DNA of 64,000 bases from Myxococcales bacterium. Lineage in GTDB: Bacteria; Myxococcota_A; Polyangia; Polyangiales; DASUME01. The notes beneath the pieces are model-generated. The model did not search any database. It saw only the letters and a program-made list of their open reading frames with translations, and had not been told where the DNA came from. Shown here in pieces: positions 30,064 through 49,136 of the stretch (position 1 is its first letter; every line of letters begins with the position of its first letter). Made by a program: the position numbers and the translations under genes. The DNA lies in the NCBI GenBank assembly GCA_047601445.1, contig JASGJH010000001.1, forward strand, positions 8,576,001 through 8,640,000. Direction: 5' to 3'.

Positions 30064-33000
30064 TCAGCGCTCTGCCAGGGCCAAGGCATGCCAAATCAAC
30101 TCCGGCTCGGTCCCCGTTAGCACTTCGCGCAGGACGATGCCGAGCATGGTGTCGCAGCGATGATCCAACAGACTCGTGGCGCTGCAGTCGAGGATGCGCG
30201 CCTCGACGCTGCTGTGGGAGAGTGCGCCGAAGCCGTGAGCCTCGTCGAGTGGCGTGAGGCCGCTGCGATGGCCTCGAATCAATGTGATGGGTGCCCCGCA
30301 CGGACGCGCACGATGGCGCAGCAGGGCGTTCCATTGAGGCGCGCTCAGGCTTTGATAGCAAGCCGGCACGGCCGGCAGGTCGGCCGGGTCTTCGAGCGCC
30401 GGTGGTCCGTCTGGGACGCGGCGGAGGAGTTGCTGCAGGCTGCGCGCCCAGAGCAGCTTGCGGTTCTCCGCCTGGTGGGGGAGGAGCCGGGAGTAGCCGA
30501 GCATGGCCCTGCGAACGTTGGGAGCCAACGCCCTCAGGTACGCGAGCGAAGGGGCATAATGTGCGCCGGGCGCCAGGCTCTGGATCGCGATGACCCGGCT
30601 TACCTCGACGCCCTCGGACTCGAGCTGTACGGCCATCTCCTGCGCCACGTTGCCGCCGAGTCCCACGCCCAGCAGGCACAAGGTCTTCGGCAGGGCCTGA
30701 CGACGCATGGCGGCCACGTGGCGCGCCGCGAGCTCTTCGAGCTCCAGGTACACGTCTTCGTCACAGGTGACGGCGAGCGAGGCGATGCTCAAGCCGTCCA
30801 CGAGCGGGCGGTACCAGGCGAGGGCGCGCTCGGTGCCGCAGCCGTCCGGGTGCACGCAGAAGAGCTGCGGACTTTGCCCGTTGTCCGCCAGCGGCACGAG
30901 ATAGGACGCGCGGGGATCGCGACGTGGGATCTCGCTGGCGCGCACGAGGAGGCTCAACTCGAGCGGAGTCGGTGCCTCGAACAGCGTGGCGAGCGGCAAG
31001 CGCTTGTTCGTTTGTACCAACATCTTCTCGAACAGCCGCACGGCCAAGATCGAATGGCCACCCAGGTCGAAAAAGCTGTCGGTCAGTCCCACCGGCGCGC
31101 GGCCGAGGAACTCCTCGAAAAGGCGGCAAATCATGGTCTCGAGCTCGTCGCGCGGGGGCTCGTAGTTGCGCGCAGCCTCGTCTCCGAAGCTCGGCGGCAG
31201 CAGGGCCTTGCGGTCGAGCTTGCCGTTGCGCGTCAGCGGCAACGCGGGCAGCTCGACGAAGGCGCTCGGGATCATGTAGTCGGGGAGCTGCGTCTTGAGC
31301 GCGGCCTGCAGCTCTTGCACCACGAGGTTTTTCGCGTGCTGCTTGACCACGTAGGCCACCAGACGCACGTCGTGGGGCGCGATCTCGCAGGGCTTCACCG
31401 CACATGCTTCGATGCCAGGCAGGCGCAGCAATTGATTCTCGATCTCCACCTAGCTCCACGCGATGGCCGCGGAGCTTGACCTGCTCGTCGAGGCGTCCCA
31501 AGAACTCGATCTCACCGTCCGGGCGAAAGCGCGCGGCGTCGCCCGTGCGGTACATGCGCCCGCGGACCTCCACCAGCGAGGTGCGCCCGTCTCGGCGCGC
31601 GTAGGATACCGAGAACGGATCGGAGACGAAGCGCTCGGCGCTCAGATCGGGGCGCCTGTGGTAGCCACGCGCGACGCCTGCGCCTCCGATATAGAGCTCG
31701 CCCGCGACGCCAGGGGGCACCGGGATGCCGCCCTCGTCCAGCACGTAGATCGAGGTGTTGTCGATAGCGCGCCCCAGGACCACGCTGGTGGCGTCAGGCA
31801 GCACACGCGCGCAGGCGCTCCAAATGGTGGTCTCGGTGGGGCCGTACAGGTTGAACAAGCCGCCGCCCGCGCGAGCCGCGAGTGCGCGCGCCATCTCCAG
31901 CGGCAGCGCCTCGCCGCCGCACAGGAGCTTGAGGTTCTCCAGGCGCGGCAGACCCACCTCGAGCAGCATGCGATAAGTGGATGGCGTGGCCTGCAGACAG
32001 GTGATGTCGCCGCGGGCCAAGCGTCGCGCGAGCTCGGCGCCGTCAGCGGAGAGCAGGCGCGGGGCGATCTCGAGCTGGGCGCCCACGAACAGCGGCAAGA
32101 AGAGCTCGAGCGCGGCGATGTCGAAAGACACCGTGGTCAAGGCGAGCAGGCGATCGTGTTCGGCGAGTCCCGGACGGCGGGCCATGGCGCTCAGCAGGTT
32201 GAACAACGCCGACTGCAGGATTCTCGACTCCCTTGGGCCGACCCGTGGAGCCCGACGTGAATATCAGATACGCGAGGTGATGGGGCTGGAGACCGCCGCG
32301 AGGGGGTGGGTCGGTCGGCATCGCAGTGGTGTGGGGAAGAGCCGACTCGAGCACCAGCACGGCGGCCTCGCAGGCAGGCAAGCTGCCGCGCAGCGCTTGT
32401 TCGGTGATCACCACCCGGGGGCTCGCGTCCTCCAACATGAGGCCGATGCGCGCGGGCGGGTAACTCGGATCGAGCGGCACGTAGGCGCCGCCGGCTTTCA
32501 TCACGGCCAAGAGCGCGACCACCAGCTCCACGCCGCGCTCGAGGAACACCGCGACCTGGACCTCGGGCGCCACGCCCAGCGTGCGCAGCCGGTGGGCCAG
32601 TTGATTCGCGCGCACGTCGAGCATGCGATAGCTGACTGTCTCCTGTCCCGCGAGGACGGCCGTCCGGTCCGGATGTGCGCCCACGCGGGACTCGAATACG
32701 TCGAGAAAGAGCTCGCTTCCGCCCTGCGCTCGCGCCGGTCCGCGGCCCTGCGAGAGGAGCTCTTCCTGCTCGAGCGGCAGCAGCCACGGCAGCTTGCCGC
32801 AGCGCGCGTGGGGCTCGAGCAGCGCGCTCTCCAGCAACACGATGAAGCGCTCGGCCAGGCGTTCGGCGCTCGTAAGGCTCATCGAGTCGCTCTGGTACTC
32901 GAGGCGCACCTGGGTCTGGGTACCCGTGTCGAGCAAGGAGAGGGAGACCTCATGGGGCGAGGCTGCACGGTCCAACAGCAGCGGCTCGACCTCGAGGGCA

Positions 33001-36000
33001 TCGACGTGAGGCTTCAATCTCCGCATGACCTGATAGTCGAAGTGCGTTTGGAAGAGCGGTGCGTGAGCGTGGCTGAGCGCTGGGGCCAGCGCTTCCACGA
33101 CGTGCTCGAAGGGCACCGACCGATGCTCCAGCGCCTCGAGAACGTTGGCCTTCACCGACTGCACCAGCTCGGCGAAGCTCGCCTCCGGAGCTACCTGGCT
33201 CCGCATCACCAGCGTGTTCGCGAACGGGCCCACCATCCGTTCGGTCTGCACGTGCTCACGTCCTGAGACCTTCGTGCCCACGCACAAGTCGGTCTCACCG
33301 GAACTGCGCATCAAGAGCACGTCGAAGGCGCTCAGCAGGGCCATGAAGCGCGTGACGCCGAACTCGAGGCAAAACGCGTCGAGTGCCGTCACCACCGTCG
33401 ATGGCAGCGTGCGCGTGACCAACCCGCCTTCGAGACTGCGTTGGGCCGGGCGCGGTCCATCGCTCGGGAAGGTCGACAGCAGCGGAGCGCCGGCCAGCTG
33501 GGTGCACCAGTAGCGGAGTGCCGCCTCCGACGACGGCGCACCATCGGGCTGAGTGCGTTGCCAGTGCGCGTAGTCCGGGAAGGACACCTCGTTCGCTGGC
33601 AGCTGCGCCTCGTCGCGACGGAGCTCGCTCCGATACAGCGCGCACAGCTCGGCGAACAGCAGGTCGAGCGAGCCGCCATCACAGGCGATTGGGTGAATCA
33701 CGAGGGCGAGCAAGCGCAGCTGGGAGTCGACGCGATAGAGCCGGCACTTGGCCACCGCGCCCCGGGTCAGGTCGAAGGGCTCTCGGGCCAGCTTGGCAGC
33801 CTGTTTCTCGGCCAGCTCCAGCGACGCCACCTCGCTCACCTCGAGCGGCAGCTCCTGGGCAGACAGCACCCGTTGGAGGAGGCCCGGAGAGCTGCGATAG
33901 CGTGTGCGCAAGGCGGCGTGGCGTGCGATCAGCGCCTGCAGCGCGGCGCGCAGTGCCGTCTCTTGACACGGTCCGCGCAGCACGAGCGCGCCCGCCACGT
34001 GGCAAGCGCTCGCGGCTGCATCGAGGGTATGTTCGCGCCAGATGCGCTCCTGGGGCAGCGCAAGCGGGAATAGATCGGCGTGCTGGGGCTCGATGGGCGG
34101 CGCTGGCAGCTGAGCTGGCGCGGCTTCCAGCATGACGGACAGGCGCGCCGCGCTGCGCGCTTCGAACAGCCACGCGAGCGGGACGTGCACCGACAGCGCG
34201 CGCTCGAGCCTGGCCAAGAGCTGCATTGCCAGGACGGACTCCATGCCCAGACGGAACAGGTCCTCGTCTGGATCGACGGCCGTGAGCCCCAGGAGAGCGG
34301 CGCACTCCGCGGTCACCAGAGCTTCGTGCTCGGAACGGCGCGCCGGGGCGACCAGCGCGCAGGCTTGCCGCAAGACGGTCTCGAACTCGCCGTCCAGGTA
34401 ACGGCGTTTCGCCAGGGAGCGCTGGACCTTGCCGCTCGAGGTCTTCGGGAGCGTGCCGGGGCGTACCAGCCACAGGTCGTGCAAGATGAGCTCGTGCTCT
34501 GCGAATACGGCGGCGCGCAGCATCCTCCCCACTTGCTCCCAGTCGAGCTCTTGCGTGAGCTCCACCTCCTGGATCAGACACACTCGCTCCTCGCCCTCGA
34601 AATCAACCGAGAACGCCGCAGCACAGTTGGCACGCGCGGCAGGGTGCGCCCCCTGCACGGTGTGCTCGATGTCCTCTGGGTACAGGTTGCGGCCGCGCAC
34701 GATCAGCAAGTCCTTCAGCCTGCCGGTGACGTACAGCTGGCCGGCCAGCACGAACCCGAGATCTCCCGTGCGCAGCCAATCCTGGCCGTCGTCGGGGCTG
34801 GGGCGCGCCCGAAACACCTGCTCGGTCTCTTCGCCGCGCTGAAAGTAGCCATTGGGCACGGATGGGCCGTGCAGCCAGATCTCACCGACCAGGCTGCGAT
34901 CGTGCGCCGACGCGGCTGGCTCGATCTCGCGCCCGCTGCTGGGATCCACGATCATCACATGATGGCCCGGGATCACGCTGCCGCAGCCCACGACCAAGGT
35001 CGTATCCTCTTGCGTGGTGGCGCGCGCGACATGGTGACGCCCGAGCTCGCGCTCCGAGGCGGGGAAGCTGGTGGGCCCGCTCGCGTCAGTGAAGGACACC
35101 AGCAAGGTGGCCTCGGCCAGTCCGTAGCAGGGGCGTAGCGCCGAGCGTCGAAAGCCGACCGGCTCGAAGGCCGTGCAGAACGCGTCGAGGGTCTCGGCGC
35201 GCACGCGCTCGGCGCCGTTCCAGGCGACGCTCCAGCACGACAGGTCGAGGCCGCGCTTGTGCCGTTCGTCGATGCGCTTACTGCACAGTGCGTAGGCGAA
35301 GTCCGGGGCGCCGCCGTGGGTCCCGCGGTAGCGCGTGAAGGCATCGAGCCAGCGCGAGGGCTCGGCGAGGAAGGCTTGCGGTGACATCATGGTGGAAGGA
35401 CAGCCGGCCACCACGGGCATCAGCACCGTCGCGACGAGGCCCATGTCGTGGTAGGGCGGCAGCCAGGAGACGACCTGGCTCTCGGGCGACATTCCCGTGG
35501 CTTCCACGCCGCGCATGCAGTTTTCGAGCAGGTTGTCGTGGCTGAGCATCACGCCGCGCGGCGCTGCGCTGGAACCCGACGTGTACTGCAGCAGCGCGAC
35601 GTGTCGTGCCTGCGCATCGGCGAACAGGAGCTCGCGGGAGGCGAACCCCGCAGCCTCGAGCGCGTCGACCGCGATCAAGTCCAGGCTCGAGCTGGTGTAC
35701 GTGCGGAGATCGCGCTCGAGCGGTTCCACGAGCGAGCGTGTGACCAGCGCCGCGCCGGCCAGGGTGTCCGCCAGGAGCAACTCGAAGCGCGCCGACGAGC
35801 GATGCAGATGCGGCGGCAGCGACGGTACGGCCACGCGCTCCGAGATCAAGCAACCCCACAAGCTCACCAGGTAGTCGAGGCCCGGGGGACACAGCAGGAG
35901 CACGCGCGCGCCCTTCGCCGTGCGGGCCCGCAACGCGTGCGCGACGTCGCTCGCACGCTGATACAGGTCCGCGAAGGACAGCTCGAGGGGCTGCATGTCG

Positions 36001-36098
36001 GCGTCGCGCAGGAAGCGGTACACCAGACGGTCCGGCGTGGCCGCAGCGCGCACAGCCAGCAGAGCCGGCAGAGTTCGGGGCAGGTTGTGGAGGGTCAT
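30064..36098 (-). pseudogene. Non-ribosomal peptide synthetase FAAL-ACP-C-A-PCP-TE (~2010 aa if repaired), split by two +1 frameshifts that may be sequencing errors
   Basis: FAAL: LQYTSGS, SWLPPYHDMGL, PCYGLAE, LRTGDLG, PKTSSGK. ACP: GMES. C: HPIACDG. A: YLIFTSGSTGRPKG, FDI, NLYGPTE, YRTGD, PLTRNGKLDR. PCP: GGHS. TE-like C-terminus. Extra A near 32221 and extra G near 31447. Confidence 0.9.
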
Positions 36099-36949
36099 CG
36101 GCCCTGGCTCGAGGGGTGGAAATGGGCGGGGAGAGAGCGCGCCGGCGTATCGGCCGTGGCCTCCTGGAGCAACGTCGAGAAAGCCGACACCAGGTGTTCG
36201 ACCCAGGGCGGATCGAGGATGAATTGGTGCGTGCCCGGGACCGTCGTGACCCGCACGCCGCCGTCCACCACCGCGCCCCAGCCATTGGTTTGATCTTCGA
36301 ACGAGACGCCCTTCCACTCTGGCGGAGTGGCTGCGCGGAACAAGTCGACGCGACCCGGGTAGCGCGATGGTCGATAGGTTCGCAGTGCGTGTTCGTGGGC
36401 CAAGCTGACGCGCTGCAAGGCCTTGAGTGAGTCGCTGTGTCCCGCCGGAATGCGCGCCATGGCCCAGATGGCGTCCTTGCTGCGGTCCGGCCTGATCACG
36501 TGGCGCTCGGTGGAGACGCCCAGCGCCTGCTTGACCACGCGCGTGACCTGCGTCTTGGTACGCGCCCAGAGCGGAGCACGCCGCGGATAGTCGGGCCCGA
36601 AGGTGTCGAACAGGGCGAGCAGCGCGACCGTCTCACCCTCGCTGACCAAGCTGCAGGCCATCTCGTAGGCGATGTTGCCGCCGAACGAGGGGCCCCCGAG
36701 GAAGTAGGGGCCGCGCGGTTGACGCCGTCGAAGTTGCTCCAGGTAGAACCTGGCGGCCTCGACGACCGACAGGAAGGGCGCGCTGCGTCCGTTTAGCCCG
36801 CGCGCCTGGATGCCGAGCAACGGCTGCTCGCTCGACAGTGCGCTCGCGAACACGTGCGCGTACAGGACGTTGCCGCCGTTGGGGTGCAGCAGCCAAAAGG
36901 GCGTCCGCGTCCCGCCGCGGATCTCGACGACGATGTCATCTTCTTCCAC
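36095..36949 (-). CDS. Stand-alone NRPS-type thioesterase (alpha/beta hydrolase)
   Basis: LLHPNGG, GPYFLGGPSFGG (GxSxG), LFDT, VPGTHQFI; stop overlaps the NRPS ATG (ATGA). Start uncertain. Confidence 0.9.
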   Translation of the reverse strand: MEEDDIVVEIRGGTRTPFWLLHPNGGNVLYAHVFASALSSEQPLLGIQARGLNGRSAPFLSVVEAARFYLEQLRRRQPRGPYFLGGPSFGGNIAYEMACSLVSEGETVALLALFDTFGPDYPRRAPLWARTKTQVTRVVKQALGVSTERHVIRPDRSKDAIWAMARIPAGHSDSLKALQRVSLAHEHALRTYRPSRYPGRVDLFRAATPPEWKGVSFEDQTNGWGAVVDGGVRVTTVPGTHQFILDPPWVEHLVSAFSTLLQEATADTPARSLPAHFHPSSQGR

Positions 36950-39256: not shown

Positions 39257-41233
39257 ATGAGTTCCCTGGTCGAGCTTCGCCGCAAAGATGGGCGCGCGCG
39301 TCGCGATCTCACGGCGTTTCTTCCGACCACGCGCGAGGAAATGGCGGCCCGCGGCTGGGACCAGCTCGACGTCCTCATCATCAATGGCGACGCCTACGTG
39401 GACCATCCGGCCTTCGGCGGTGCCCTGATCGGGCGCTTCCTCGAGGGGCGTGGCTTTCGGGTGGGCATGATCGCTCAGCCGCGCTGGGATGCACCCGAGG
39501 ACCTGCTGGTGATGGGAGCGCCCAAGCTGTTCGTGGGCATCACGGCTGGCAACCTCGACAGCATGCTCAACAAGCTCACCGCGCAGAAGAAGGTGCGCTC
39601 GGAGGACCAGTACTCCCCCGGCGGTCGCACCGGTGCGCGCCCCAACCGCGCCAGCATCGTGTACGCCAACCTGGCGCGTCGCGCATTCCCGGGCGTACCG
39701 CTGGTGCTCGGAGGCATCGAGGCTTCGCTGCGTCGCATCGCGCACTTCGACTACTGGAGCGAGCAGGTGAGGCGCTCCATCTTGCTCGACTCCAAGGCCG
39801 ACATGGTGATCTTCGGCATGGGCGAGCGACCGGTTTGGGAGCTGGCCGAGCGGCTCAAGGCCGGAGCGCGCATCGAGCAGGTTCGAGACCTCCGCGGCAC
39901 GGGCTTCGTGCTGCGCAAGGGCGAGTGGGAGAACCTCGAGGGCAGTCGCTTCGTGCGCGATGGCAAGCCCGTGATCCTGCCGAGCTACGAAGAGGTGTCC
40001 GCGGACACGCCCGAGGCGCGCCGAGCGTTCAGCGAGGCAAGCCGCGCCTTTCAGCTCGAGACCAACCCGGGCAATGGCAGACCGATCGTGCAGCCGCACG
40101 GCGTGGAGGCCATCTACCTCAATCCTCCTGCGCAACCGCTCGACACCGCGACCATGGACGAGCTCTACGACCTGCCGTTCCAGCGTGCGGCCCACCACAG
40201 CTACGCCGATCCGATTCCAGCCTTCGAGACGGTCAAGCACTCCATCGTCACCATGCGCGGGTGCTTCGGCGGCTGCAGCTTCTGTTCGATCACCGAGCAC
40301 GAGGGGCGCGTGATTCAGTCACGCTCCGCCGAGAGCGTGTTGCGCGAGGTGCGCGCATTGCGTCGACTCGACGACTTCCGCGGGGTGATCAGCGACGTGG
40401 GCGGCCCCACCGCCAACATGTACCAGATGCGCTGCCGCGAGGAGCGCATCGAGAAAGCCTGCCGCCGGCTCTCGTGCGTGTACCCAGGCGTGTGCGAGAA
40501 CCTGGTCACAGACCACGCTCCGCTGGTCGATCTACTGCGCAAGGTCCGCAAGGAGCCCGGCGTGCGCAAGGTGTTCATCGCCTCGGGTGTTCGCTACGAC
40601 CTCGCCGAGCTCAGCCCGGAGTTCGTGGACGAGCTCGCCATGCATCACACCGGCGGGCAGCTCTCGGTGGCTCCCGAGCACGTGGACACCGCGGTGCTCG
40701 ACAAGATGAAGAAGCCCGGGGCAGAGACCTACGAGCGCTTCGCCGATATGTTTGCCTGCTCGAGTGAGAAGAGCGGCAAAGAGCAGCACCTCATTCCCTA
40801 TTACATCTCGGGTCACCCAGGTTCTTCGCTGAACTCGATGATCGACCTGGCGCTCTACCTCAAGCAACGCGGGCTCAGGCCGCGGCAGGTCCAGGACTTC
40901 ATCCCCACCCCGATGTCCATGGCCACCAGCATGTACTACACCGGCCAGGACCCTTTCTCGCGCGAGCCGGTGTACACGGCCAAGACGCTGCACGAGAAGC
41001 GCCTGCAAAAGGCGCTGTTGCAGTACTGGGATCCGGAGCAGCATCACCTGGCGCGCGAAGCGCTGACCGCGGCGGGGCGCAGCGACCTGATCGGCAGCAA
41101 GGCGCACCAGCTGGTGCCGCCGGAGCGCGGACAGGGAGCGTTGTCGATCCATCAGCGGCGTCGCCAGCAGGCCGGAAGGCCCCAGGGGCGTGTGGGTCGG
41201 CGAGGGGCGGGTACCCCGCCGAGCAAGCGCTAG
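39257..41233 (+). CDS. YgiQ (UPF0313) family radical SAM protein
   Basis: GDAYVDHPAFG, GGIEASLRR, RGCFGGCSFC (CxxxCxxC), DVGGPTANMY, SGVRYDL, QVQDFIPTP. Confidence 0.95.
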   Translation: MSSLVELRRKDGRARRDLTAFLPTTREEMAARGWDQLDVLIINGDAYVDHPAFGGALIGRFLEGRGFRVGMIAQPRWDAPEDLLVMGAPKLFVGITAGNLDSMLNKLTAQKKVRSEDQYSPGGRTGARPNRASIVYANLARRAFPGVPLVLGGIEASLRRIAHFDYWSEQVRRSILLDSKADMVIFGMGERPVWELAERLKAGARIEQVRDLRGTGFVLRKGEWENLEGSRFVRDGKPVILPSYEEVSADTPEARRAFSEASRAFQLETNPGNGRPIVQPHGVEAIYLNPPAQPLDTATMDELYDLPFQRAAHHSYADPIPAFETVKHSIVTMRGCFGGCSFCSITEHEGRVIQSRSAESVLREVRALRRLDDFRGVISDVGGPTANMYQMRCREERIEKACRRLSCVYPGVCENLVTDHAPLVDLLRKVRKEPGVRKVFIASGVRYDLAELSPEFVDELAMHHTGGQLSVAPEHVDTAVLDKMKKPGAETYERFADMFACSSEKSGKEQHLIPYYISGHPGSSLNSMIDLALYLKQRGLRPRQVQDFIPTPMSMATSMYYTGQDPFSREPVYTAKTLHEKRLQKALLQYWDPEQHHLAREALTAAGRSDLIGSKAHQLVPPERGQGALSIHQRRRQQAGRPQGRVGRRGAGTPPSKR

Positions 41234-41273
41234 CCAGCACCAACATCGGCTCGTCGTGATCGTGGCGGTGGTC

Positions 41274-41377
41274 GTGGACTTTGATCGCGACGGCGACGGT
41301 GTGCGTGGCCGCGCCGGGTCGATGCTCTGAACGGCTTACCGCTCACGCACACTGTCGCCGTCGCCGCTCAAGTCCAC
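41274..41377 (+). repeat. Long intergenic hairpin with hexamer-periodic arms
   Basis: GTGGACTTTGA..GCGACGGCGACGGTGTGCGTG pairs with CACGCACACTGTCGCCGTCGC..TCAAGTCCAC, between convergent genes. Confidence 0.8.
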
Positions 41378-41419
41378 ATCGCCGACCAGGTTCAGGTCAA
41401 CGTTGTAGGCCTGGTCTCC

Positions 41420-41899
41420 TCAGTCGAAGGCGATCATGGAGTCGTCGACCGGCGCGGGGCGTACGCGCAGGGGAATGCTGGCCAACACGGCCTCCAGGTC
41501 CTGCATCTTGCCCCAGTGACGACGCTGCTGCTCGTGGAAGAAGGTGGCGTGCTCTTCGGCGAAGTGCGCCAGGCCGTTCACCGAAAGGCCACGCTTGGCG
41601 AGCGAGCGAGCGAGGAGCTGGTCGAAGTGGCGCGTGGACAGCGTGCGCACCACGGCGTCCGCCTCGGCGCTCGAGGCGTAGTCGAAGAGCGCTGCGGTGT
41701 AGATCTCGTCCGAGTAGATCTCGAACGCTTCTTCGAGACCGGCGGCATAGGTGGCTTCGACGTCTGGGCGCTGGCTATTGCCGGCGCTTGGCGTCGTGGC
41801 CTGAGACGCGCTGCAACCGAGGATCGCCGAGAACGCTACGAACAACACGCGCCTTCGAAGTGCGCTGGGGGCGGCGCACGCAATACCCGAATGCTTCAT
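41420..41899 (-). CDS. Hypothetical lipoprotein (159 aa) downstream of the riboswitch
   Basis: AGGAGG RBS before ATG 41899; lipobox ILGC; helical acidic body. Confidence 0.75.
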   Translation of the reverse strand: MKHSGIACAAPSALRRRVLFVAFSAILGCSASQATTPSAGNSQRPDVEATYAAGLEEAFEIYSDEIYTAALFDYASSAEADAVVRTLSTRHFDQLLARSLAKRGLSVNGLAHFAEEHATFFHEQQRRHWGKMQDLEAVLASIPLRVRPAPVDDSMIAFD

Positions 41900-41937
41900 A
41901 AGGTGGTTCCTCCTGACGGGCAGGGAGAGGAACCGAA

Positions 41938-42032
41938 CCGGCTTCGGTAACCATTCAAACCGTGGGCTAAGCGCCTTTAGGTCAGTGGCTTTGCGTCCGC
42001 GCCTTTCGCACGCGGTTGCCTTTGTCGGCCGG
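41938..42032 (-). ncRNA. Cyclic di-GMP-I (GEMM-I) riboswitch aptamer
   Basis: Minus strand CCGGCCGACAAAGGCAACCGCGUGC-GAAA-GGCGCGGACGCAAAGCCACUGACCUAAAGGCGCUUAGCCCACGGUUUGAAUGGUUACCGAAGCCGG: GGCAA, P2 with GNRA loop, GGACGCAAAGCC junction, CCUAA/ACGG tetraloop receptor and GGUUACCGA 3' end, as in Vc2. Confidence 0.9.
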
Positions 42033-42176
42033 ATCCCCGAGCTGCTGTTGAGATCAATTCTCGTAGCAACCGATTCCGCAGCACAACGAAATTCGCCGTC
42101 ATGTTTGTTCAGCACCCGCCCCGAGCGGGCGCGCCATGGCCGCCTGAATGTCGTGCAAGTTCGGCGCTTAAAGCGG

Positions 42177-42200
42177 CACGGGGCCCCGTGAGGCCCCGTG
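42177..42200 (-). terminator. GC-rich hairpin, probable terminator after the FadL-type gene
   Basis: CACGGGGCC-(6 nt)-GGCCCCGTG about 45 bp after the stop; weak U-tract. Confidence 0.55.
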
Positions 42201-42245
42201 TCGTGAGCAAACTCCAAGCAGACCACCCGGTCCGCGAGCCCACCC

Positions 42246-43628
42246 TCAGAAATGCATCGTGGATCCGATGCCCGCGAAGTCCGCTTCCATGGTGTAGACA
42301 CCGTTGCCGATGTGGTCAGCCTTGTCACGCTCCTGGGGCGGACGAATCGCCGCCGGCTGCGTGATGTCGCTGTTGGTGATGGTGCGGTTGGGCATGAACA
42401 CGTGGCCGTACACCAGGTCCAGGTCCATCACGGAGCCGACGTGGAGCGTCACGCCCATGCCCAGCACGACCTTGTTGGCGTCCAGGGTCAGCGGGGAGAG
42501 CGCGTTGTCCTTGAGCGCCGTGGTGTCGTAGGAGAGACCACCGCGGATCGTGATCTCCATGTCCTCGAGGAAGTACTCGAAGCCGCCGCGGATACTGTAG
42601 GAGTTGCTCATCAAGCGCGGGATCTTGATGCTGCCGACCTCGTAGTCGCCGATACCCACGATGTTGCGCAGGTACATGCCCTTGGTGTCGGCCGTGATGT
42701 AGTCCTGACGCGACCAACCCTCGTACACGCCCGCCACTTCGAGGCTGAGGTTCTCATTGGGGTTGATCTCGACGCCGGCGCGACCGATCCAGGGGAAGGG
42801 CACGTTGACGTCGGCCTTGTTGCCGTCGATGCGGGCGTTGTCGAAGACCGCGTTCGTGGGCAGGTGCGCCTTGATCTCGGCTTCGCCCTTGATGTTCCAG
42901 GGCGTCTGGAGCGAGGCACCGATCTTCACGGGCCCAGCCTCGTAGGTGATACCCGCGCCGATCATCACGGTGGCGAAGATGGGCAACGTGATGGTGGTCG
43001 CCACGTCGAAGGACGGGTCCTCCGGGTGCACGCATACGAAGCCATCGCAGGCGCTCAACGCGGTAGATGCTTTGAAGCGACCGGCGACCAACGCGGCCGA
43101 GACACCCAGCGAGAGGCCCTCGATGGGATGCCACGCTGCACCGAGAGCGGTGTTCGCGAAGATGCTGCCCTTGAGGGAGTAGAGCGAGTAGCGGTTGGGT
43201 GCGGGCGCGCTGCCCACGTGGTCGGGCCACGTGTAGAGAGCGAACTGCTGCACGTAGACGGCCAGGCCGAAATCCCAATCCTCGAGACCGAAGTTATTGG
43301 TGATGCCGAACAGCGGGATGGGCAGCTTGGCGACGCTGAGGTCCACCGGCTTGTACTGGTTGCCGCCGTCGTCCACGCGCGCGAATGAAGCACGCAGGAA
43401 GGCTAGGTTGCCTTCCATGCGGAAGCTGGCACCCGCGCCCTTGAGACCTGCCGGGTTGATCCAAAGCGACTCCGCGCCCTCGGCACCGGCGACGAAGGCG
43501 CCGCCGCGACCGAGTGTACGAACACCGCGTTCGGTGAGGAAGAAACCGCTGGCTTGGGCACGCTGAGGTAACAGATTCGTGACCGCGCAAAACAGCAGCG
43601 CGAGGGCAAGAAAGAGTTTCGATCGCAT
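42246..43628 (-). CDS. FadL/OmpP1-family outer-membrane transport protein
   Basis: Signal peptide then ASGF...LGRGGAFVAGA...WINPAGL (NPA hatch motif); beta-strand pattern; C-terminal Phe. Confidence 0.88.
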   Translation of the reverse strand: MRSKLFLALALLFCAVTNLLPQRAQASGFFLTERGVRTLGRGGAFVAGAEGAESLWINPAGLKGAGASFRMEGNLAFLRASFARVDDGGNQYKPVDLSVAKLPIPLFGITNNFGLEDWDFGLAVYVQQFALYTWPDHVGSAPAPNRYSLYSLKGSIFANTALGAAWHPIEGLSLGVSAALVAGRFKASTALSACDGFVCVHPEDPSFDVATTITLPIFATVMIGAGITYEAGPVKIGASLQTPWNIKGEAEIKAHLPTNAVFDNARIDGNKADVNVPFPWIGRAGVEINPNENLSLEVAGVYEGWSRQDYITADTKGMYLRNIVGIGDYEVGSIKIPRLMSNSYSIRGGFEYFLEDMEITIRGGLSYDTTALKDNALSPLTLDANKVVLGMGVTLHVGSVMDLDLVYGHVFMPNRTITNSDITQPAAIRPPQERDKADHIGNGVYTMEADFAGIGSTMHF

Positions 43629-46600
43629 CAGGGCTTTTCCTGCTTCATTTCGTCGTCAGACGCGGGGGGAGGGACAGGGCTATCGGCGAGCTTCACGTTG
43701 CGGTTCTTGATCACGGCGAACAGGCGCTCGAGACCGTTGAAGTCGCTCGACAGGAAGTTGTGAGCCGTCGTGGCGATCTGCTTGAAGTCGTCGCGCTTGA
43801 GCGGTTCGGTGCTCTTCAGTGCGGGATTCTCACGCTCGATCTCGGTCGACATGTCCAGCAGCTGCTCGAGCGGCGTCTTGCCCTCGGGCGTATCGGCTAC
43901 CAGGTTCTTCAGCACCTTGGACAGGGTGGTGGGACGCTGCGTGTGCAGGATCATCACCTGGTTCAAGAGCTCCACTCCCTTGCGCAGGATGCTCGCGTTG
44001 GCGTCGGCCTTGCCATCGCCCTTCTCCACGGCTTTGCTGACGCCAGGGGCGACAGCCTCACCCGAGAGCTTGAGGATGGGCGCGATGCGACCGGTGTCCT
44101 CGAGCAGCTGGAATAGGTCCGTGGCGGCCACGATCGTGTTGCGGAAGCCGTCCGGGTTCTGCTCCTGGTCCACGAGGTGGACGATGAGCCGCATCAGCTC
44201 CTTGCCGGCCGCAGGCTCCTGCCACGACTTGTCGACCAAGTGCACGAGGCCCGCGATGAGCGGCGTGTCGAAGAAGGTGACCGAGCGCTCGCTGAGGCCG
44301 GCTGCCCACTCCGGGACGTCCCCCGCGTCCTGGTGCGCCTTGATGCGCTCCTGCAGGAACGTGAGCGTTCGCAGGAAGACCTTGTGACCGACGCGGTCCT
44401 TCAGCCGATTGGCGTTGGGATCGGTCTTGTCGATGGTGAGGAACAGGTCGACCACGTCGCTGCGGGCCTGGTGCCAGTCCTGCTGGGCCTCGGTACCGCC
44501 ATCGAGCGCAGCGAAATTCTGGTCGATGCGCTTGAGGCCGTCGAGGATGAGGTACAGCGGCGACACGTAGCCCACGTCGACGCCCACGTTGTTCTTCGCG
44601 CTGGCGCTGCCGTCGCGATAGGTCAGCTCGGCGTCGGGCTTGACCATCACTTCGACGAACTCGGCGAGGATGGTGAGGCCGGACTTGCCGTCCACCTTCA
44701 CGCTCTCGAGCGCCTTGGAAGCGACGTTCAGCGAGTGGATGAACTTGAGCTCACCGAAGATCTTGGCGAGCAGCGGCTCGTAGCTGCGCAGGTTGGTCTG
44801 ATAGGAGAAGAACTTCCCCATCGGATCGGTGTGCTGCGTGCAGGTGGTCCAGTTCTTCGCCGTGGGAGCCTGGCACTCAGCGTCGCTGCGCGCGCCCCAG
44901 TGCATGTGGAACACGTTCAGCAGGTCGGCGAACATGTAGCCGTCGGGCAGCTTGTAGCTCTTGCAGCCCAGGAAGCACTGACCGTCGATCTCGGTGGAGA
45001 GCTCGGTGTCCTCGAAAGCCGCCATCAGCGGTAGACCCGCCTCCTGGAAGCTCAGGCCACCGGCATTCTTGTGCTTCACTTCCATGGCGAAGAGCGCATA
45101 GGGCTCCACCCAGGTGATCGGCACGCCGTCGATGCCGTTGACGCCGTCGGTCAGTCCCTTCACGAACTGATTCGGCGGCGCGAACAGGAAGCGCGCCAGG
45201 GACGGGCCGGTCGGCTTGTCGGTGAAGCCGGTGATCTGGCTCTCGTCCTCCTGGATCAGACCGTTGGCCGAACCCAGGATGGAGATGTCGGGCTTCAGCG
45301 AGATGGCAGCCTTGCCCATGCAGGCCTGGCTGTAGATACGCACCATGTCGGGCACCTCGAACAGCTCGCAGGGCTTGTAGCCGCCGCTGAGCGGCAGCGT
45401 GATGCCGCCGAGGTTCTTGATCAGGTGCAGCGTGGCGCCGTCCTTGTTGCACTGCTTCTGGTTACGCAGGTTGTGAATCAGCGACATCGTGCGCTGCCAA
45501 ACGCTGCGGTTCTCGCCGACGTCGGGCATGGTGTAGTCGACCGGCGTCTTGTAGGTGACCGTGGCCTCGGCGTTGAGGTCGGCTTCCTGCTCGTCGCTGA
45601 AGAGGCCGTCCGCGCCCGCCGGCGTGAAGTCGGCGTTCTTGTACTTGGCCACGTCCTTGAAGGACATCCAGGTCTGGAAGATGGCGTCCTGCTGCACGCT
45701 CTTGTCGTCGATGATCATCTTGATCACGCGCTCGATCATGCCCTTGCGGCGACTCATGCGTTCTGCGACGGCGATCAGGTCGTCCCAGAAGCGGTGGGCG
45801 CCGCCGGGCATGCCGTCGGTCTCACCGAGCGTCTGCGCGTCGGGGAAGTCCTTCCCGAGCTCGTTCATCTGCAGCATGGTGTCCACCAGCTGCGTCATCT
45901 CGTGCTCGTGCTCGCGCATGCCGATGCGCAGCGCCTCGAGCAGCCGGCGGGTCTCGTCCGGGTGCTTGAGCAGGGCGCCCACGCCATGGACGAGGTCGTG
46001 GATCGCGCCCGTGTCCGGGTCAGGTCCGTCGAACTCCACCTTGGACTTGCCGTAGGTGACCGTGTGCTTCTTGGAGAGGCCGAACAAGGCGGGCAGGCCG
46101 CGGCCGATTTTCTCGAAAGGCGTGCGGTCCTTGTCGGTGGGGTAGGGCGTCGAGAGCCGCGCGTCCTCCTGGAGGAACGCTGCCGTCATCGTGAGGTTCG
46201 CGTCGAAGTAGTCGTAGAGCGTCTGGCCGCCGTTCAGCGCGCGGTCGTCGTCGTCGCGGTCCACACCCTTCTCGCCGAGGAGCTTGTAGGGGGTCGGGGC
46301 GCCGCCCTTGAACTTGCCCGAGGTGTCCGTGTCGGGCAGGCCGTCGCCGTCCGAGTCCTCGAACACGGAGGGCAGGGCACCGTTCTCCATCAGCGGAACG
46401 GCGACGCCACGCGAGTCGCGCTTGGTCACCCAGATCGGTGCGGCGGTCGGGAGCTCGTCCTTGTCGAGGACCGGGTCGTACACGGAGGACAGCATCAGGT
46501 CCCGCGCGATGCGCAGGGTGGAGTCCTCGGCGAGCGGAGAGTCGTCGTAGCTCGCCATCTCGAGCGCGAGGCCCTGGGCGATCTCGTCGAGCTCGAGCTC

Positions 46601-47251
46601 GCCCTTGCCACCGCGAGCCAGGAAGTGCATGCCCGTCTCGGAGAGCTTGTCGAGGTCGGGGTAGGTGAGGACCACCTTGATCAGACCGAGCGCCAGATCG
46701 AGCTTGCGGTAGCCCGTGCGGCCCGTGATCTCCGAGAAGGCCTGGAGCGCCTTCTTGCCGGTGGTATCGCCGTCGTCGATGAGGCGCGCCAGCACCGCCG
46801 CGATCGCGCGCGTGTTGCCGGGCAGGATGGGGTCGTCGCCGTCGTAGAGCGGCAAGAGCTCCTTGAGGAAGTCCGTGATCTCGTCGCCCTGGAGCTGGAC
46901 GATGACCTTCTCGGACTTCACCTCGTCGTCGCCAAGGACGCGATTCACCGCCTTCACGATGGTGTCGCGGCGCGACAGGATGGCCTTGAAGCGATCGCTA
47001 TCCTGGTACTGCTCAGGCAGCGAGTCGACGTCGCCGTTCTCACAGGCATCCTCGAACGGGAGGCCCGTGATCTCCTTCGGGTACTCTGCCTTTGCCTGAC
47101 GCTTGCAGAAGACGCGGTAGACCTCGCCACCGACACTCAACTTTTCGCGCTTGGCTCCGTAGACCCAAACATCCTTTGCGCAGCCTGCTGCGCCAGCACT
47201 CAGACCCAACGTCAAAATAAGAGCTCGTTTAAGCATCCAGGGACTCGCCAT
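43628..47251 (-). CDS. Large hypothetical lipoprotein (~1207 aa)
   Basis: GGAGG RBS; lipobox AAGC; DSDGDGLPD Ca-binding-like loop; stop overlaps the FadL-type start; very strong GC3 bias. Confidence 0.88.
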   Translation of the reverse strand: MASPWMLKRALILTLGLSAGAAGCAKDVWVYGAKREKLSVGGEVYRVFCKRQAKAEYPKEITGLPFEDACENGDVDSLPEQYQDSDRFKAILSRRDTIVKAVNRVLGDDEVKSEKVIVQLQGDEITDFLKELLPLYDGDDPILPGNTRAIAAVLARLIDDGDTTGKKALQAFSEITGRTGYRKLDLALGLIKVVLTYPDLDKLSETGMHFLARGGKGELELDEIAQGLALEMASYDDSPLAEDSTLRIARDLMLSSVYDPVLDKDELPTAAPIWVTKRDSRGVAVPLMENGALPSVFEDSDGDGLPDTDTSGKFKGGAPTPYKLLGEKGVDRDDDDRALNGGQTLYDYFDANLTMTAAFLQEDARLSTPYPTDKDRTPFEKIGRGLPALFGLSKKHTVTYGKSKVEFDGPDPDTGAIHDLVHGVGALLKHPDETRRLLEALRIGMREHEHEMTQLVDTMLQMNELGKDFPDAQTLGETDGMPGGAHRFWDDLIAVAERMSRRKGMIERVIKMIIDDKSVQQDAIFQTWMSFKDVAKYKNADFTPAGADGLFSDEQEADLNAEATVTYKTPVDYTMPDVGENRSVWQRTMSLIHNLRNQKQCNKDGATLHLIKNLGGITLPLSGGYKPCELFEVPDMVRIYSQACMGKAAISLKPDISILGSANGLIQEDESQITGFTDKPTGPSLARFLFAPPNQFVKGLTDGVNGIDGVPITWVEPYALFAMEVKHKNAGGLSFQEAGLPLMAAFEDTELSTEIDGQCFLGCKSYKLPDGYMFADLLNVFHMHWGARSDAECQAPTAKNWTTCTQHTDPMGKFFSYQTNLRSYEPLLAKIFGELKFIHSLNVASKALESVKVDGKSGLTILAEFVEVMVKPDAELTYRDGSASAKNNVGVDVGYVSPLYLILDGLKRIDQNFAALDGGTEAQQDWHQARSDVVDLFLTIDKTDPNANRLKDRVGHKVFLRTLTFLQERIKAHQDAGDVPEWAAGLSERSVTFFDTPLIAGLVHLVDKSWQEPAAGKELMRLIVHLVDQEQNPDGFRNTIVAATDLFQLLEDTGRIAPILKLSGEAVAPGVSKAVEKGDGKADANASILRKGVELLNQVMILHTQRPTTLSKVLKNLVADTPEGKTPLEQLLDMSTEIERENPALKSTEPLKRDDFKQIATTAHNFLSSDFNGLERLFAVIKNRNVKLADSPVPPPASDDEMKQEKP

Positions 47252-47362
47252 CGGCGACCTCCGACCAAAACCTTGCTGTTGCTCTCGTAAACAAGCGACC
47301 TGGTAGCAAAGCCCGTAGGGCCGCATCCAGGTCGCAACACTTCGTGGATAAGGGACGACCTT

Positions 47363-48934
47363 CTAACTGGCGATCAGCCCGCCCCTCCGACCTTCTTCTC
47401 GAAGCGGCTCGAGATCCTTCACGAACGCGTCGTGCAGGTCAGCCGCGAGCTGCTTGGCCTCTTCTTCGGCCGACTTGTTCATGATCAAGCGGTCCGTGGC
47501 CACGCTGCCACCGAACTTGATGACCCAGCTCTCCATGGCTTCCAGAGAAGCCGTGAGCGCGAACACGCCCGGTCCACCAGCCGTGCGGCTTCCGAGCTCG
47601 ATGTGGGACTCGACGCCCTTGCCGTCGTTGCCCTTGACCGCCGTGCGGAAGAACTCCTCGGTGATGTCCTGGATGTTGCTCGAGATGAAGACGTCCAGGA
47701 AGCCGGGCGAGAACAGGCCCAGCGCGCGGCCCTCCACCTTGACCTTGGGCATCGTCTTGATGTGCGAGTCGATCACCGTGTACGAGTCGTGCACGTCGTA
47801 CTCGGAGTCGATGCGCAGGTTCTTCAGGTTCACGATGATGCCGAGCATGTTCAGGCGCGCCTGGATGTTCACCACCGGCGCCTTGATCGACTTGGCCAAG
47901 GTGTCGAGGGGTTCATTCTCGTACACCTGATTGTCGTCGAACGGCAGGACCTGACCGTCCTTCACGTAACATTCGACGCCGAACAGCAGCTTGTCGCTGT
48001 CCACCGTGAGGCGGACCAGGTCGCGGCCGGCGTCATCCAGCACGCGCACCTTGGCGCTCAGCACGTCGTTGAGCTTGTCGATGTGCTTGGCGAAGTTCGG
48101 GTACTTGGCCTTGAGGCGGCTGGGCTCCGCGCGCATGCGCGTGGTGATGTGGAAGTAGCCGTTGGTCTCCACGGCGCGCACGTCCTCGAGACGGCCGACC
48201 GTCTGCAGAAGATCGCCGAGCGTGGGGTACGCCTCGTAGAGGATGGCGAGGCTCTCGACGTCTTCGCTGCCGAGACCGGGGTTGCTCTGCTTGATCTTGG
48301 CGATCGACGCCGCTGCAGGCTGGGGCTTGTCGCCGGTGGCCTCGCTGCCGCGGGGGTCGCCCATGGTGGCCAGGCGCGAAAGCGAGCGGCCGGCTTCCAT
48401 CAGACCGCTGTAGGAGAGCTGACCGAGGCCGAGGCCGAAGCGCGTGCCGGCCGCCAAGCTGTCGTGTTCCTTGCCCTCGTAGTGCTTGCCGTAGATCAGC
48501 AAGGACATGTCCGCCAAGCCGTTGCGGCTGTCGAGACCGACCTCGTAACCGGAGCCGGGCTCGGCGCGACTGACCAGGTACTTGCCGCCAGAGAGGGCGC
48601 CCTTGACGTGAAGCTCGCGGCGGTTGTTCCGCTCATCGGGCAACAACTTGTAGAAACCCTCGAGATCGAAGTCCTCGAACTCCTTGATGGCCTTGTCGAT
48701 GAACTTCTGGGTCGGCGGATCGACCTCGGTCTTGTGCAGGAACGCCTCGTAGGCGCCCGTTAGTCGATGAAGGGCTTTCAGCGCGGTCCCGGTGTCACCG
48801 GAGCCCTGGCTCCAGAGCACGACCATCGGGGTCCAGCCCGCGACAGTGGCGTCGAGAGAGTTAGCAGCGAGGGCCGTACCGGCGCTTAGTAGGCCGAGAC
48901 CGATGATGGCGGAGCGTGTGCGATTGGCGGTCAT
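47363..48934 (-). CDS. Hypothetical secreted protein (3' end possibly frameshifted)
   Basis: Signal peptide ending ALA; strong GC3 bias. Removing one base near 47406 gives DLERFEKKVGGAG* ending at 47374. Confidence 0.82.
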   Translation of the reverse strand: MTANRTRSAIIGLGLLSAGTALAANSLDATVAGWTPMVVLWSQGSGDTGTALKALHRLTGAYEAFLHKTEVDPPTQKFIDKAIKEFEDFDLEGFYKLLPDERNNRRELHVKGALSGGKYLVSRAEPGSGYEVGLDSRNGLADMSLLIYGKHYEGKEHDSLAAGTRFGLGLGQLSYSGLMEAGRSLSRLATMGDPRGSEATGDKPQPAAASIAKIKQSNPGLGSEDVESLAILYEAYPTLGDLLQTVGRLEDVRAVETNGYFHITTRMRAEPSRLKAKYPNFAKHIDKLNDVLSAKVRVLDDAGRDLVRLTVDSDKLLFGVECYVKDGQVLPFDDNQVYENEPLDTLAKSIKAPVVNIQARLNMLGIIVNLKNLRIDSEYDVHDSYTVIDSHIKTMPKVKVEGRALGLFSPGFLDVFISSNIQDITEEFFRTAVKGNDGKGVESHIELGSRTAGGPGVFALTASLEAMESWVIKFGGSVATDRLIMNKSAEEEAKQLAADLHDAFVKDLEPLREEGRRGGLIAS

Positions 48935-49136
48935 GGGGGTGTAGGCGTAACCCTTCCTGTTCGCGAATACAGTCACCCTTTCGCTCAAACCTTTGACCGC
49001 AGGCGCTCCCCCGATTTCGCGACGGAAAACAGCTCACTCCGGTTGTTCAGTAAGTGATCTGGCACGCGCGGTCACTCGCTGATGACAAGCGATGACGTTC
49101 GCGCGGGTCACCTCCGGGTGTAGTAAGGTCAAGAGT

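Follow-up and report, generated by a model that had tools for sequence, protein, structure and literature searches.

A class I c-di-GMP riboswitch upstream of a putative lipoprotein gene in a myxobacterial genome, with predicted shut-off of translation at high c-di-GMP

A class I c-di-GMP riboswitch was found directly upstream of the gene for a putative lipoprotein of 159 aa in the window, that is, the whole 64,000-nt stretch of DNA from a soil myxobacterium analyzed here. The translation of this gene is probably switched off when c-di-GMP is high. The riboswitch class is known, and the target family is new. An earlier note on this DNA had read the leader as a translational cyclic-dinucleotide switch on an unnamed lipoprotein-like protein; the core of that reading is supported by the aptamer class and by conserved competing helices, on computed evidence. 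The competing helices and the OFF direction are additions to it, as the note had seen one of two states. The elements of the leader and the gene are the following:

42081-42086, minus strand: predicted -35 hexamer (TTGTGC) of a sigma-70-like promoter, from the conservation of TTG-N21-GAGAAT
42057-42062, minus strand: predicted -10 hexamer (GAGAAT), 18-nt spacer, from the same conservation
42031-42045, minus strand: 5' strand A (GCAG...GGGGA.CC), which takes the anti-SD strand in the ligand-free fold and has its 3' end in common with P1, from the free-state MFE
41938-42032, minus strand: c-di-GMP-I (GEMM-I) aptamer, from the RF01051 match at 41943-42030 plus the P1 extension CCGGC/GCCGG
42026 (G14), 42020 (G20), 41992 (A47), 41947 (C92) and 41946 (C93), minus strand: key bases of the aptamer in Vc2 numbering, from the model alignment
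41932-41948, minus strand: aptamer-breaking hairpin D (ACCGAA/UUCGGU), which takes C92/C93, from local folding
41921-41934, minus strand: switching anti-SD strand B (GGUUCCUC-UCC-CUG), partner of strand A or of the SD strand
41905-41915, minus strand: SD strand C (CAGGAGGAACC; AGGAGG at 41909-41914), from the SD hairpin
41420-41899, minus strand: putative lipoprotein P0001, 159 aa, with a signal peptide ending at Cys29, a flexible linker and an all-helical domain at about 44-152, from the ORF and a structure model

A search with the RF01051 (c-di-GMP-I) model, which had been proposed as a check, gave a significant match at 41943-42030 on the minus strand (48.9 bits against a gathering threshold of 35, E 1.6e-6), the sole Rfam match in the 64,000-nt window. 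The match spans the full model, positions 1-87, and with the CCGGC/GCCGG extension of P1 it gives the extent of 41938-42032 over which a complete GEMM-I aptamer had been claimed. The base at 42020 is G, as the earlier note had it, and aligns with the G20 column. The distance from the aptamer to the start of the 159-aa ORF is 48 nt.

The family of the protein was then followed through related genomes. A word-based search gave 11 family proteins, and a profile built from 16 yielded 95 representatives at the 50% identity level, with E<=1e-10 for 72; the family alignment consists of 90 sequences, without fragments and without the weak, plainly unrelated rows P0098 and P0101. Members occupy 30 places in 23 of the 401 genomes of the window's order, and none was found outside the order among 401 phylum genomes, where all three matches fell within it (nine candidates scored per genome). 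Source names of family members include Myxococcota, Sandaracinaceae and Sandaracinus, and Polyangiales is most likely the order in question. A homologue of 67% identity lies on another genome contig; pattern scans of metagenome and genome contigs gave one locus each. One candidate locus (L013) was dropped as a chance match to an unrelated membrane protein.

Whether homologues of the protein also carry GEMM-I leaders had been raised as a question, and 22 of the 30 copies do. RF01051 lies directly upstream of these copies (9 of the 10 true homologue loci first found and 13 of the 20 further loci) in 18 of the 23 genomes, in four families of one order, which marks the association as old, and a metagenome contig supplies the 23rd leader. 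The eight family copies without an aptamer are L020, L026, L035, L036, L037, L041, L043 and L044; L035 and L043 are two short members in tandem in a single genome (G142). Gene neighbours and upstream orientation vary from locus to locus, and no conserved gene neighbourhood was found beyond close relatives. Since the aptamer stays while these vary, the switch and the gene travel as one unit, outside which lie the two neighbours in the window:

42246-43628, minus strand: FadL/OMPP1-type outer-membrane transporter, upstream neighbour (PF03349, E 1.9e-15), adjoining the unit only in close relatives
39257-41233, plus strand: radical SAM protein with DUF3362, convergent downstream neighbour, from a domain match

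Two large ORFs with no significant Pfam match (43628-47326 and 47363-48988, both on the minus strand) run into the FadL-type gene, and the 1232-aa one has a lipoprotein-like N-terminus; together with the transporter gene they possibly form a lipid-uptake operon. A fatty acyl-AMP ligase or NRPS-like ORF is located at 32043-36317 (minus strand), and its last adenylation domain seems, from the translation, to leave the frame near the end.

In the 23 leaders the columns of G20, C92, C93 and A47, the last of which we take to be a pocket base of the c-di-GMP-I aptamer, are invariant, as is the GAAA tetraloop on P2 of the P1/P2/P3 junction. Within the aptamer core 93% of the cells are paired and 10 of the 27 pairs vary on both sides, which none of 500 shuffles equalled. 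The distal part of P1 and hairpin D are conserved, yet no double-sided pair changes were seen in them in the 23-leader alignment. Judged from the sequence, the element has every c-di-GMP-I feature that can be tested in this way and lacks the A20 of GEMM-Ib, with G at 42020 and in 23 of 23 leaders.

According to passages of PMC6140456, one guanine is recognized at its Hoogsteen edge by G20 and the other is paired with C92; the affinity of wild-type Vc2, which has G20, is in the picomolar range for c-di-GMP, against a KD of 10 uM for cGAMP, and A20 is the mark of cGAMP switches. The genome contains 24 GGDEF matches, of which 22 have the canonical Asp at the Hypr-signature position, two are unreadable and none has Ser or Thr; this position (GacA Ser348) was mapped as Asn+9 from residue numbers given in part of PMC6456294, and the count covers GGDEF-type synthases. 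On these grounds, namely G20 in all of the leaders, the affinities of Vc2 and Asp in the 22 readable matches, c-di-GMP is favoured over cGAMP as the ligand. It is very unlikely that the physiological ligand is 3',3'-cGAMP or that the aptamer takes both dinucleotides, although the conservation of Hypr enzymes in myxobacteria and the sensitivity of one Geobacter switch to both ligands have been described (sections of PMC6456294), and A20 variants are present in the window's order; G20 is invariant in the 23 leaders of the lipoprotein family, and no Hypr-signature enzyme was found among the readable GGDEF-type matches. The A20 variants are two class I aptamers of the cGAMP type, L047:1262-1348(-) and L050:1225-1300(-), and they also precede lipoprotein-like ORFs. 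One GGDEF domain of the window's genome (G000:C1:8892987-8893452(-)) appears as two adjacent pieces and is possibly frameshifted.

The lipoprotein gene is likely transcribed from a separate promoter, about 20 nt upstream of the aptamer. The motif TTG-N21-GAGAAT is kept in seven of the 23 leaders (six loci from genomes of the same genus and one metagenome contig) and has 12 matches in the entire 9.5-Mb genome; a generic promoter scan returned nothing there, the TTG and GAGAAT hexamers being below its threshold. Transcription is predicted from this motif to start near 42050, and in three of the seven leaders that carry it this predicted start coincides with the beginning of strand A. A start downstream of the aptamer had been named as a finding that would speak against a switch, and the conserved motif lies upstream. 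Leaders outside the window's genus (L021, L023, L025, L027-L030 and L039) show, by eye, other promoter-like motifs of the TAAA...CCGATA or ...CGTA type, so lineages that keep the switch may use different sigma factors. The AGGAGG sequence is 9 nt before the ATG at 41899.

The folding of the window's leader was analyzed from the predicted start. The hairpin at 41905-41934, which had been described as burying the SD, does fold in that way and covers AGGAGG (-12.8 kcal/mol, z -2.08, 6 of 200 shuffles as stable), but it belongs to only one of two leader folds of nearly equal energy. The free fold, with the A-B helix and hairpin D and with the pocket destroyed, reaches -51.6 kcal/mol, and the pocket fold, with P1 and the SD hairpin, -50.6 kcal/mol, so the two are within 1 kcal/mol. 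Hairpin D has -8.9 kcal/mol and accounts for 72% of the local ensemble. Taken by itself, the entire leader shows no exceptional stability (z -1.29). These values come from nearest-neighbour folding, where the tetraloop-receptor contact, the ligand and kinetics are outside the model, and all of the regulatory evidence is computed.

From these folds the following switch is proposed. Without ligand, the 3' strand of the aptamer would fold back as hairpin D and take C92/C93, which would free strand A to pair with the anti-SD strand B; this pairing would keep the SD cheap to open, and the protein would be made. Binding of c-di-GMP (G20, A47, C92) would close P1, which would hold the first arm of D and the end of strand A; strand B would then pair with the SD strand, and the ribosome would be blocked. 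Opening the SD in the window costs 3.9 kcal/mol overall and 7.8 kcal/mol with the pocket formed; when 17 coding bases are added, these costs are 5.8 and 10.2 kcal/mol, respectively. Among the results that count against the OFF model are two from the window: opening the SD still needs 3.9-5.8 kcal/mol in the free state, and the A-B helix of the window is weak, weaker than that of its relatives and matched by 139 of 300 shuffles.

The weak A-B helix, like the seven non-standard pairs flagged in the window copy against the Rfam model, could also be taken as signs of a decaying copy, in which the switch of the family is real and the SD hairpin in the window's genome merely constitutive. This explanation is most improbable: the pocket bases are intact, an extra GCAG/CUGC helix and the strong hairpin D hold both folds within 1 kcal/mol, and close relatives from three soil data sets carry a leader that differs at few positions, most of them in the variable tip of P3.

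The OFF switch was evaluated in all of the 23 leaders, which have in common a 5' strand A, an anti-SD strand B and an SD strand C resembling A on a compact platform, with 40-62 nt from C92 to the start codon. Pocket formation raised the SD-opening cost by 2.2 kcal/mol on average; for 345 shuffled platforms the mean rise was 0.25. The rise was above 0.5 kcal/mol in 19 leaders and the change below -0.5 in two; four leaders are without a clear OFF shift, or 7-8 with a wider ribosome site. With that wider site, opened through the start codon, the OFF shift was obtained in 16 and 15 of the 23, and values below -0.5 in 4 and 3. In the SD-open state, strand A pairs with the platform in 22 of the leaders and C93 is taken by downstream pairing (hairpin D) in 20; in the pocket-formed state, the SD is paired in 22.

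The competing helices are also conserved as pairings. Cognate A-platform and platform-SD duplexes were stronger than swapped ones (1 and 0 of 10000 permutations, figures inflated by kinship), and against shuffles the A-B helix is strong in 14 leaders and the B-C helix in 15. The three strands vary jointly in several lineages, as in GGGAGTC/GACTCCC/GGAGTC (L025, L039) and GAGGAACC/GGTTCCTC/GAGGAACC (L016). In the A-B helix, four of the seven pairs vary on both sides, a count that 62 of 500 shuffles reach. The A-B pair counts are approximate, as several rows of the MAFFT alignment have strands B and C misplaced; for B-C, duplex energies were used instead.

An ON switch, in which the ligand-folded aptamer would hold A beside B cotranscriptionally and A-B would form before the SD emerges, is quite improbable. 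On paper, a short P1 is compatible with the A-B helix, in folds with the pocket formed and the SD open, but in the window this joint state lies 7.8 kcal/mol above the state with pocket and SD hairpin. Cotranscriptional folding snapshots reached A-B without the pocket, and the capture of C93 by hairpin D in 20 of the 23 SD-open ensembles also argues against it. The two leaders shifting below -0.5 would fit an ON switch, and class I switches are known in both directions (portions of PMC9262584).

The joint variation of the anti-SD and SD strands across families indicates the ribosome site as the target of the switch. An untranslated message is, as a matter of general knowledge, an ordinary Rho target, and the same aptamer might act mainly through the fate of the mRNA, by Rho-dependent termination or by protection from decay, with SD blocking as a trigger or a side effect. 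We consider this unlikely in view of that joint variation and of the lack of intrinsic terminator-like sites in 41200-42400, where no U-run follows the SD hairpin. In its favour, Vc2 also controls RNA stability (10.1101/617340, in part).

The translational OFF switch that we prefer resembles known systems in several respects. Vc2, from the tfoY leader of Vibrio cholerae, belongs to the same Rfam family, has the same pocket bases and is likewise proposed to switch translation OFF, through an anti-RBS strand released when P1 forms (passages of 10.1101/617340 and PMC6140456), a mechanism called not fully validated in the former. Unlike Vc2, the switch described here has a compact platform that is conserved over four families and adds a 5' strand mimicking the SD strand, and it precedes the gene of a lipoprotein-like protein instead of a transcription regulator. 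The same strand logic was shown for Cd1 of Clostridioides difficile, where the aptamer and a repressing hairpin compete with a fold using the 3' strand of the aptamer (parts of PMC9262584); Cd1 ends in a transcription terminator, whereas here the hairpin covers the SD and lacks a U-run. The GEMM-Ib switches Gs1761 and Gm0970 of Geobacter, a related phylum-level lineage, have the same fold and envelope or lipoprotein targets, but they carry A20 and act as transcriptional ON switches (sections of PMC6456294), in contrast to the G20 found throughout this family. The two other c-di-GMP-I switches of the genome (L001 and L002) are of the same class, have G20 and precede cysteine-rich repeat lipoproteins of an unrelated protein family; their aptamer 3' end runs straight into the SD, at 12 nt from the start codon, and the window's leader has a separate switching strand.

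The extent of the 159-aa protein was also analyzed. All 11 of the close homologues begin at the same Met as the 159-aa ORF, and GC3 is 0.83 within the gene but 0.69 in the extension of a 302-aa ORF, which agrees with the earlier description of this extension as spurious. On a related soil contig, 8 of the 10 listed coding differences are at third codon positions (worked out by hand). The family has the basic N-terminus and hydrophobic stretch of a lipoprotein, its cysteine (Cys29 in P0001) is kept in 84 of the 90 members, and 79 of the 90, P0001 among them, pass our own signal-peptide rule. The strict lipobox consensus is [LVI][ASTVI][GAS]C; P0001, with ILGC, is outside it, and the strict form is present in 31 of 84 members and x-x-[GAS]-C in 83 of 84.

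AlphaFold predicted a flexible linker and a six-helix domain for whole P0001 (pLDDT 86.7), and the domain alone reached a pLDDT of 96.6 and a pTM of 0.86. Pfam and NCBIfam gave no family for P0001, as had been claimed, and no family was matched by more than two of the 90 members; a suspected likeness to DUF4296 and DUF4168 was absent among the best 25 of 70 families. The PDB sequence search gave no match (best E 0.22), Foldseek none at E<=0.001 against the PDB and viral libraries, and the Atlas search none that was usable, with three leads at 0.80-0.82 for a relative being within the chance range. The best rows from VIA-align were spectrin-repeat-like bundles (Z 7.2, rmsd 3.7 A, 101 residues; none at Z>=8), which are elongated antiparallel helical bundles like the domain of P0001, but this Z is in the range that the tool calls generic for helical bundles, identity is 4-14%, and no family is assigned from it. 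Neither a phage copy of the family nor, in a weak search, fused forms of 360-2000 aa were found. Three distant members (P0086, P0094 and P0097) are fused to a C-terminal thioredoxin-like domain with CxxC (PF13899; HHalign 97% for P0097), a hint of a link to periplasmic redox or folding.

Conserved positions of the family are mostly hydrophobic or helix-capping, and none of the columns is invariant in the 90 sequences, which argues against an enzyme. Most likely, P0001 is a non-enzymatic, lipid-anchored helical envelope protein of the low-c-di-GMP state, a role guessed from its anatomy. A possible link to EPS, motility or development is suggested by analogy with the biology of Myxococcus xanthus, whose development is governed by c-di-GMP, with a rise of about 20-fold on starvation (passages of PMC4877007). 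If this rise holds in the window's order, the protein would be produced during growth and silenced by starvation.

Additionally, class I aptamers were sought across the order. RF01051 was detected in 26 of 150 genomes, with 37 matches in total. Sixteen of these precede the helical lipoprotein family and are the sole matches listed in eleven genomes besides the window's own; 19 of the other 21 precede ORFs that are lipoprotein-like by our own rule, by which the background in the window's genome is 538 of 6104 ORFs (8.8%). Altogether, 35 of 37 aptamers precede lipoprotein-like ORFs against a background of about 9%, where kin are not independent and the 16 family copies were judged from their sequences and not by the rule. 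The other targets include cysteine-rich repeat proteins, trypsin and M12 peptidases and a DUF4382 protein. The c-di-GMP riboswitches of the order may thus form a dedicated lipoprotein regulon that shuts off the translation of surface or envelope lipoproteins as c-di-GMP rises, with the helical family as its commonest target and a new class of envelope proteins for the low-c-di-GMP, likely foraging, state; we give this slightly less than an even chance of being right.

If the regulon reading is true, it would be an RNA-based output of c-di-GMP in myxobacteria, where the receptors in the papers found are proteins. Our literature search returned no myxobacterial c-di-GMP riboswitch and nothing on the family, and the hit lists of the original GEMM survey may include myxobacterial entries. 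The finding gives another myxobacterial order a predicted RNA receptor with a named output, and places, by prediction, an unnamed family of about 90 protein clusters under the control of c-di-GMP, a first handle on its function. The surprise is moderate because the riboswitch class is well known; the compact, covarying three-way strand exchange makes this leader a clean natural model of translational class I switching.

Several other loci of the order were noted. The long-P3 aptamer subtype of the window also occurs before an unrelated DUF4382 lipoprotein (L059:205-293(+)), which suggests that the switch moved between genes. A further unnamed lipoprotein family of about 190-230 aa with two or more Cys lies behind class I switches in one genus (L053-L057), with no Pfam match for L053. 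At L064, a class I switch precedes a type IV pilin-like ORF; the contig is 2.6 kb long, belongs to a genome with 7% contamination and could be foreign DNA. Finally, class I switches are located directly before trypsin-like and M12 metallopeptidase lipoproteins at L048, L049 and L065 (the last by sequence likeness only), which are possible predation enzymes under c-di-GMP control.
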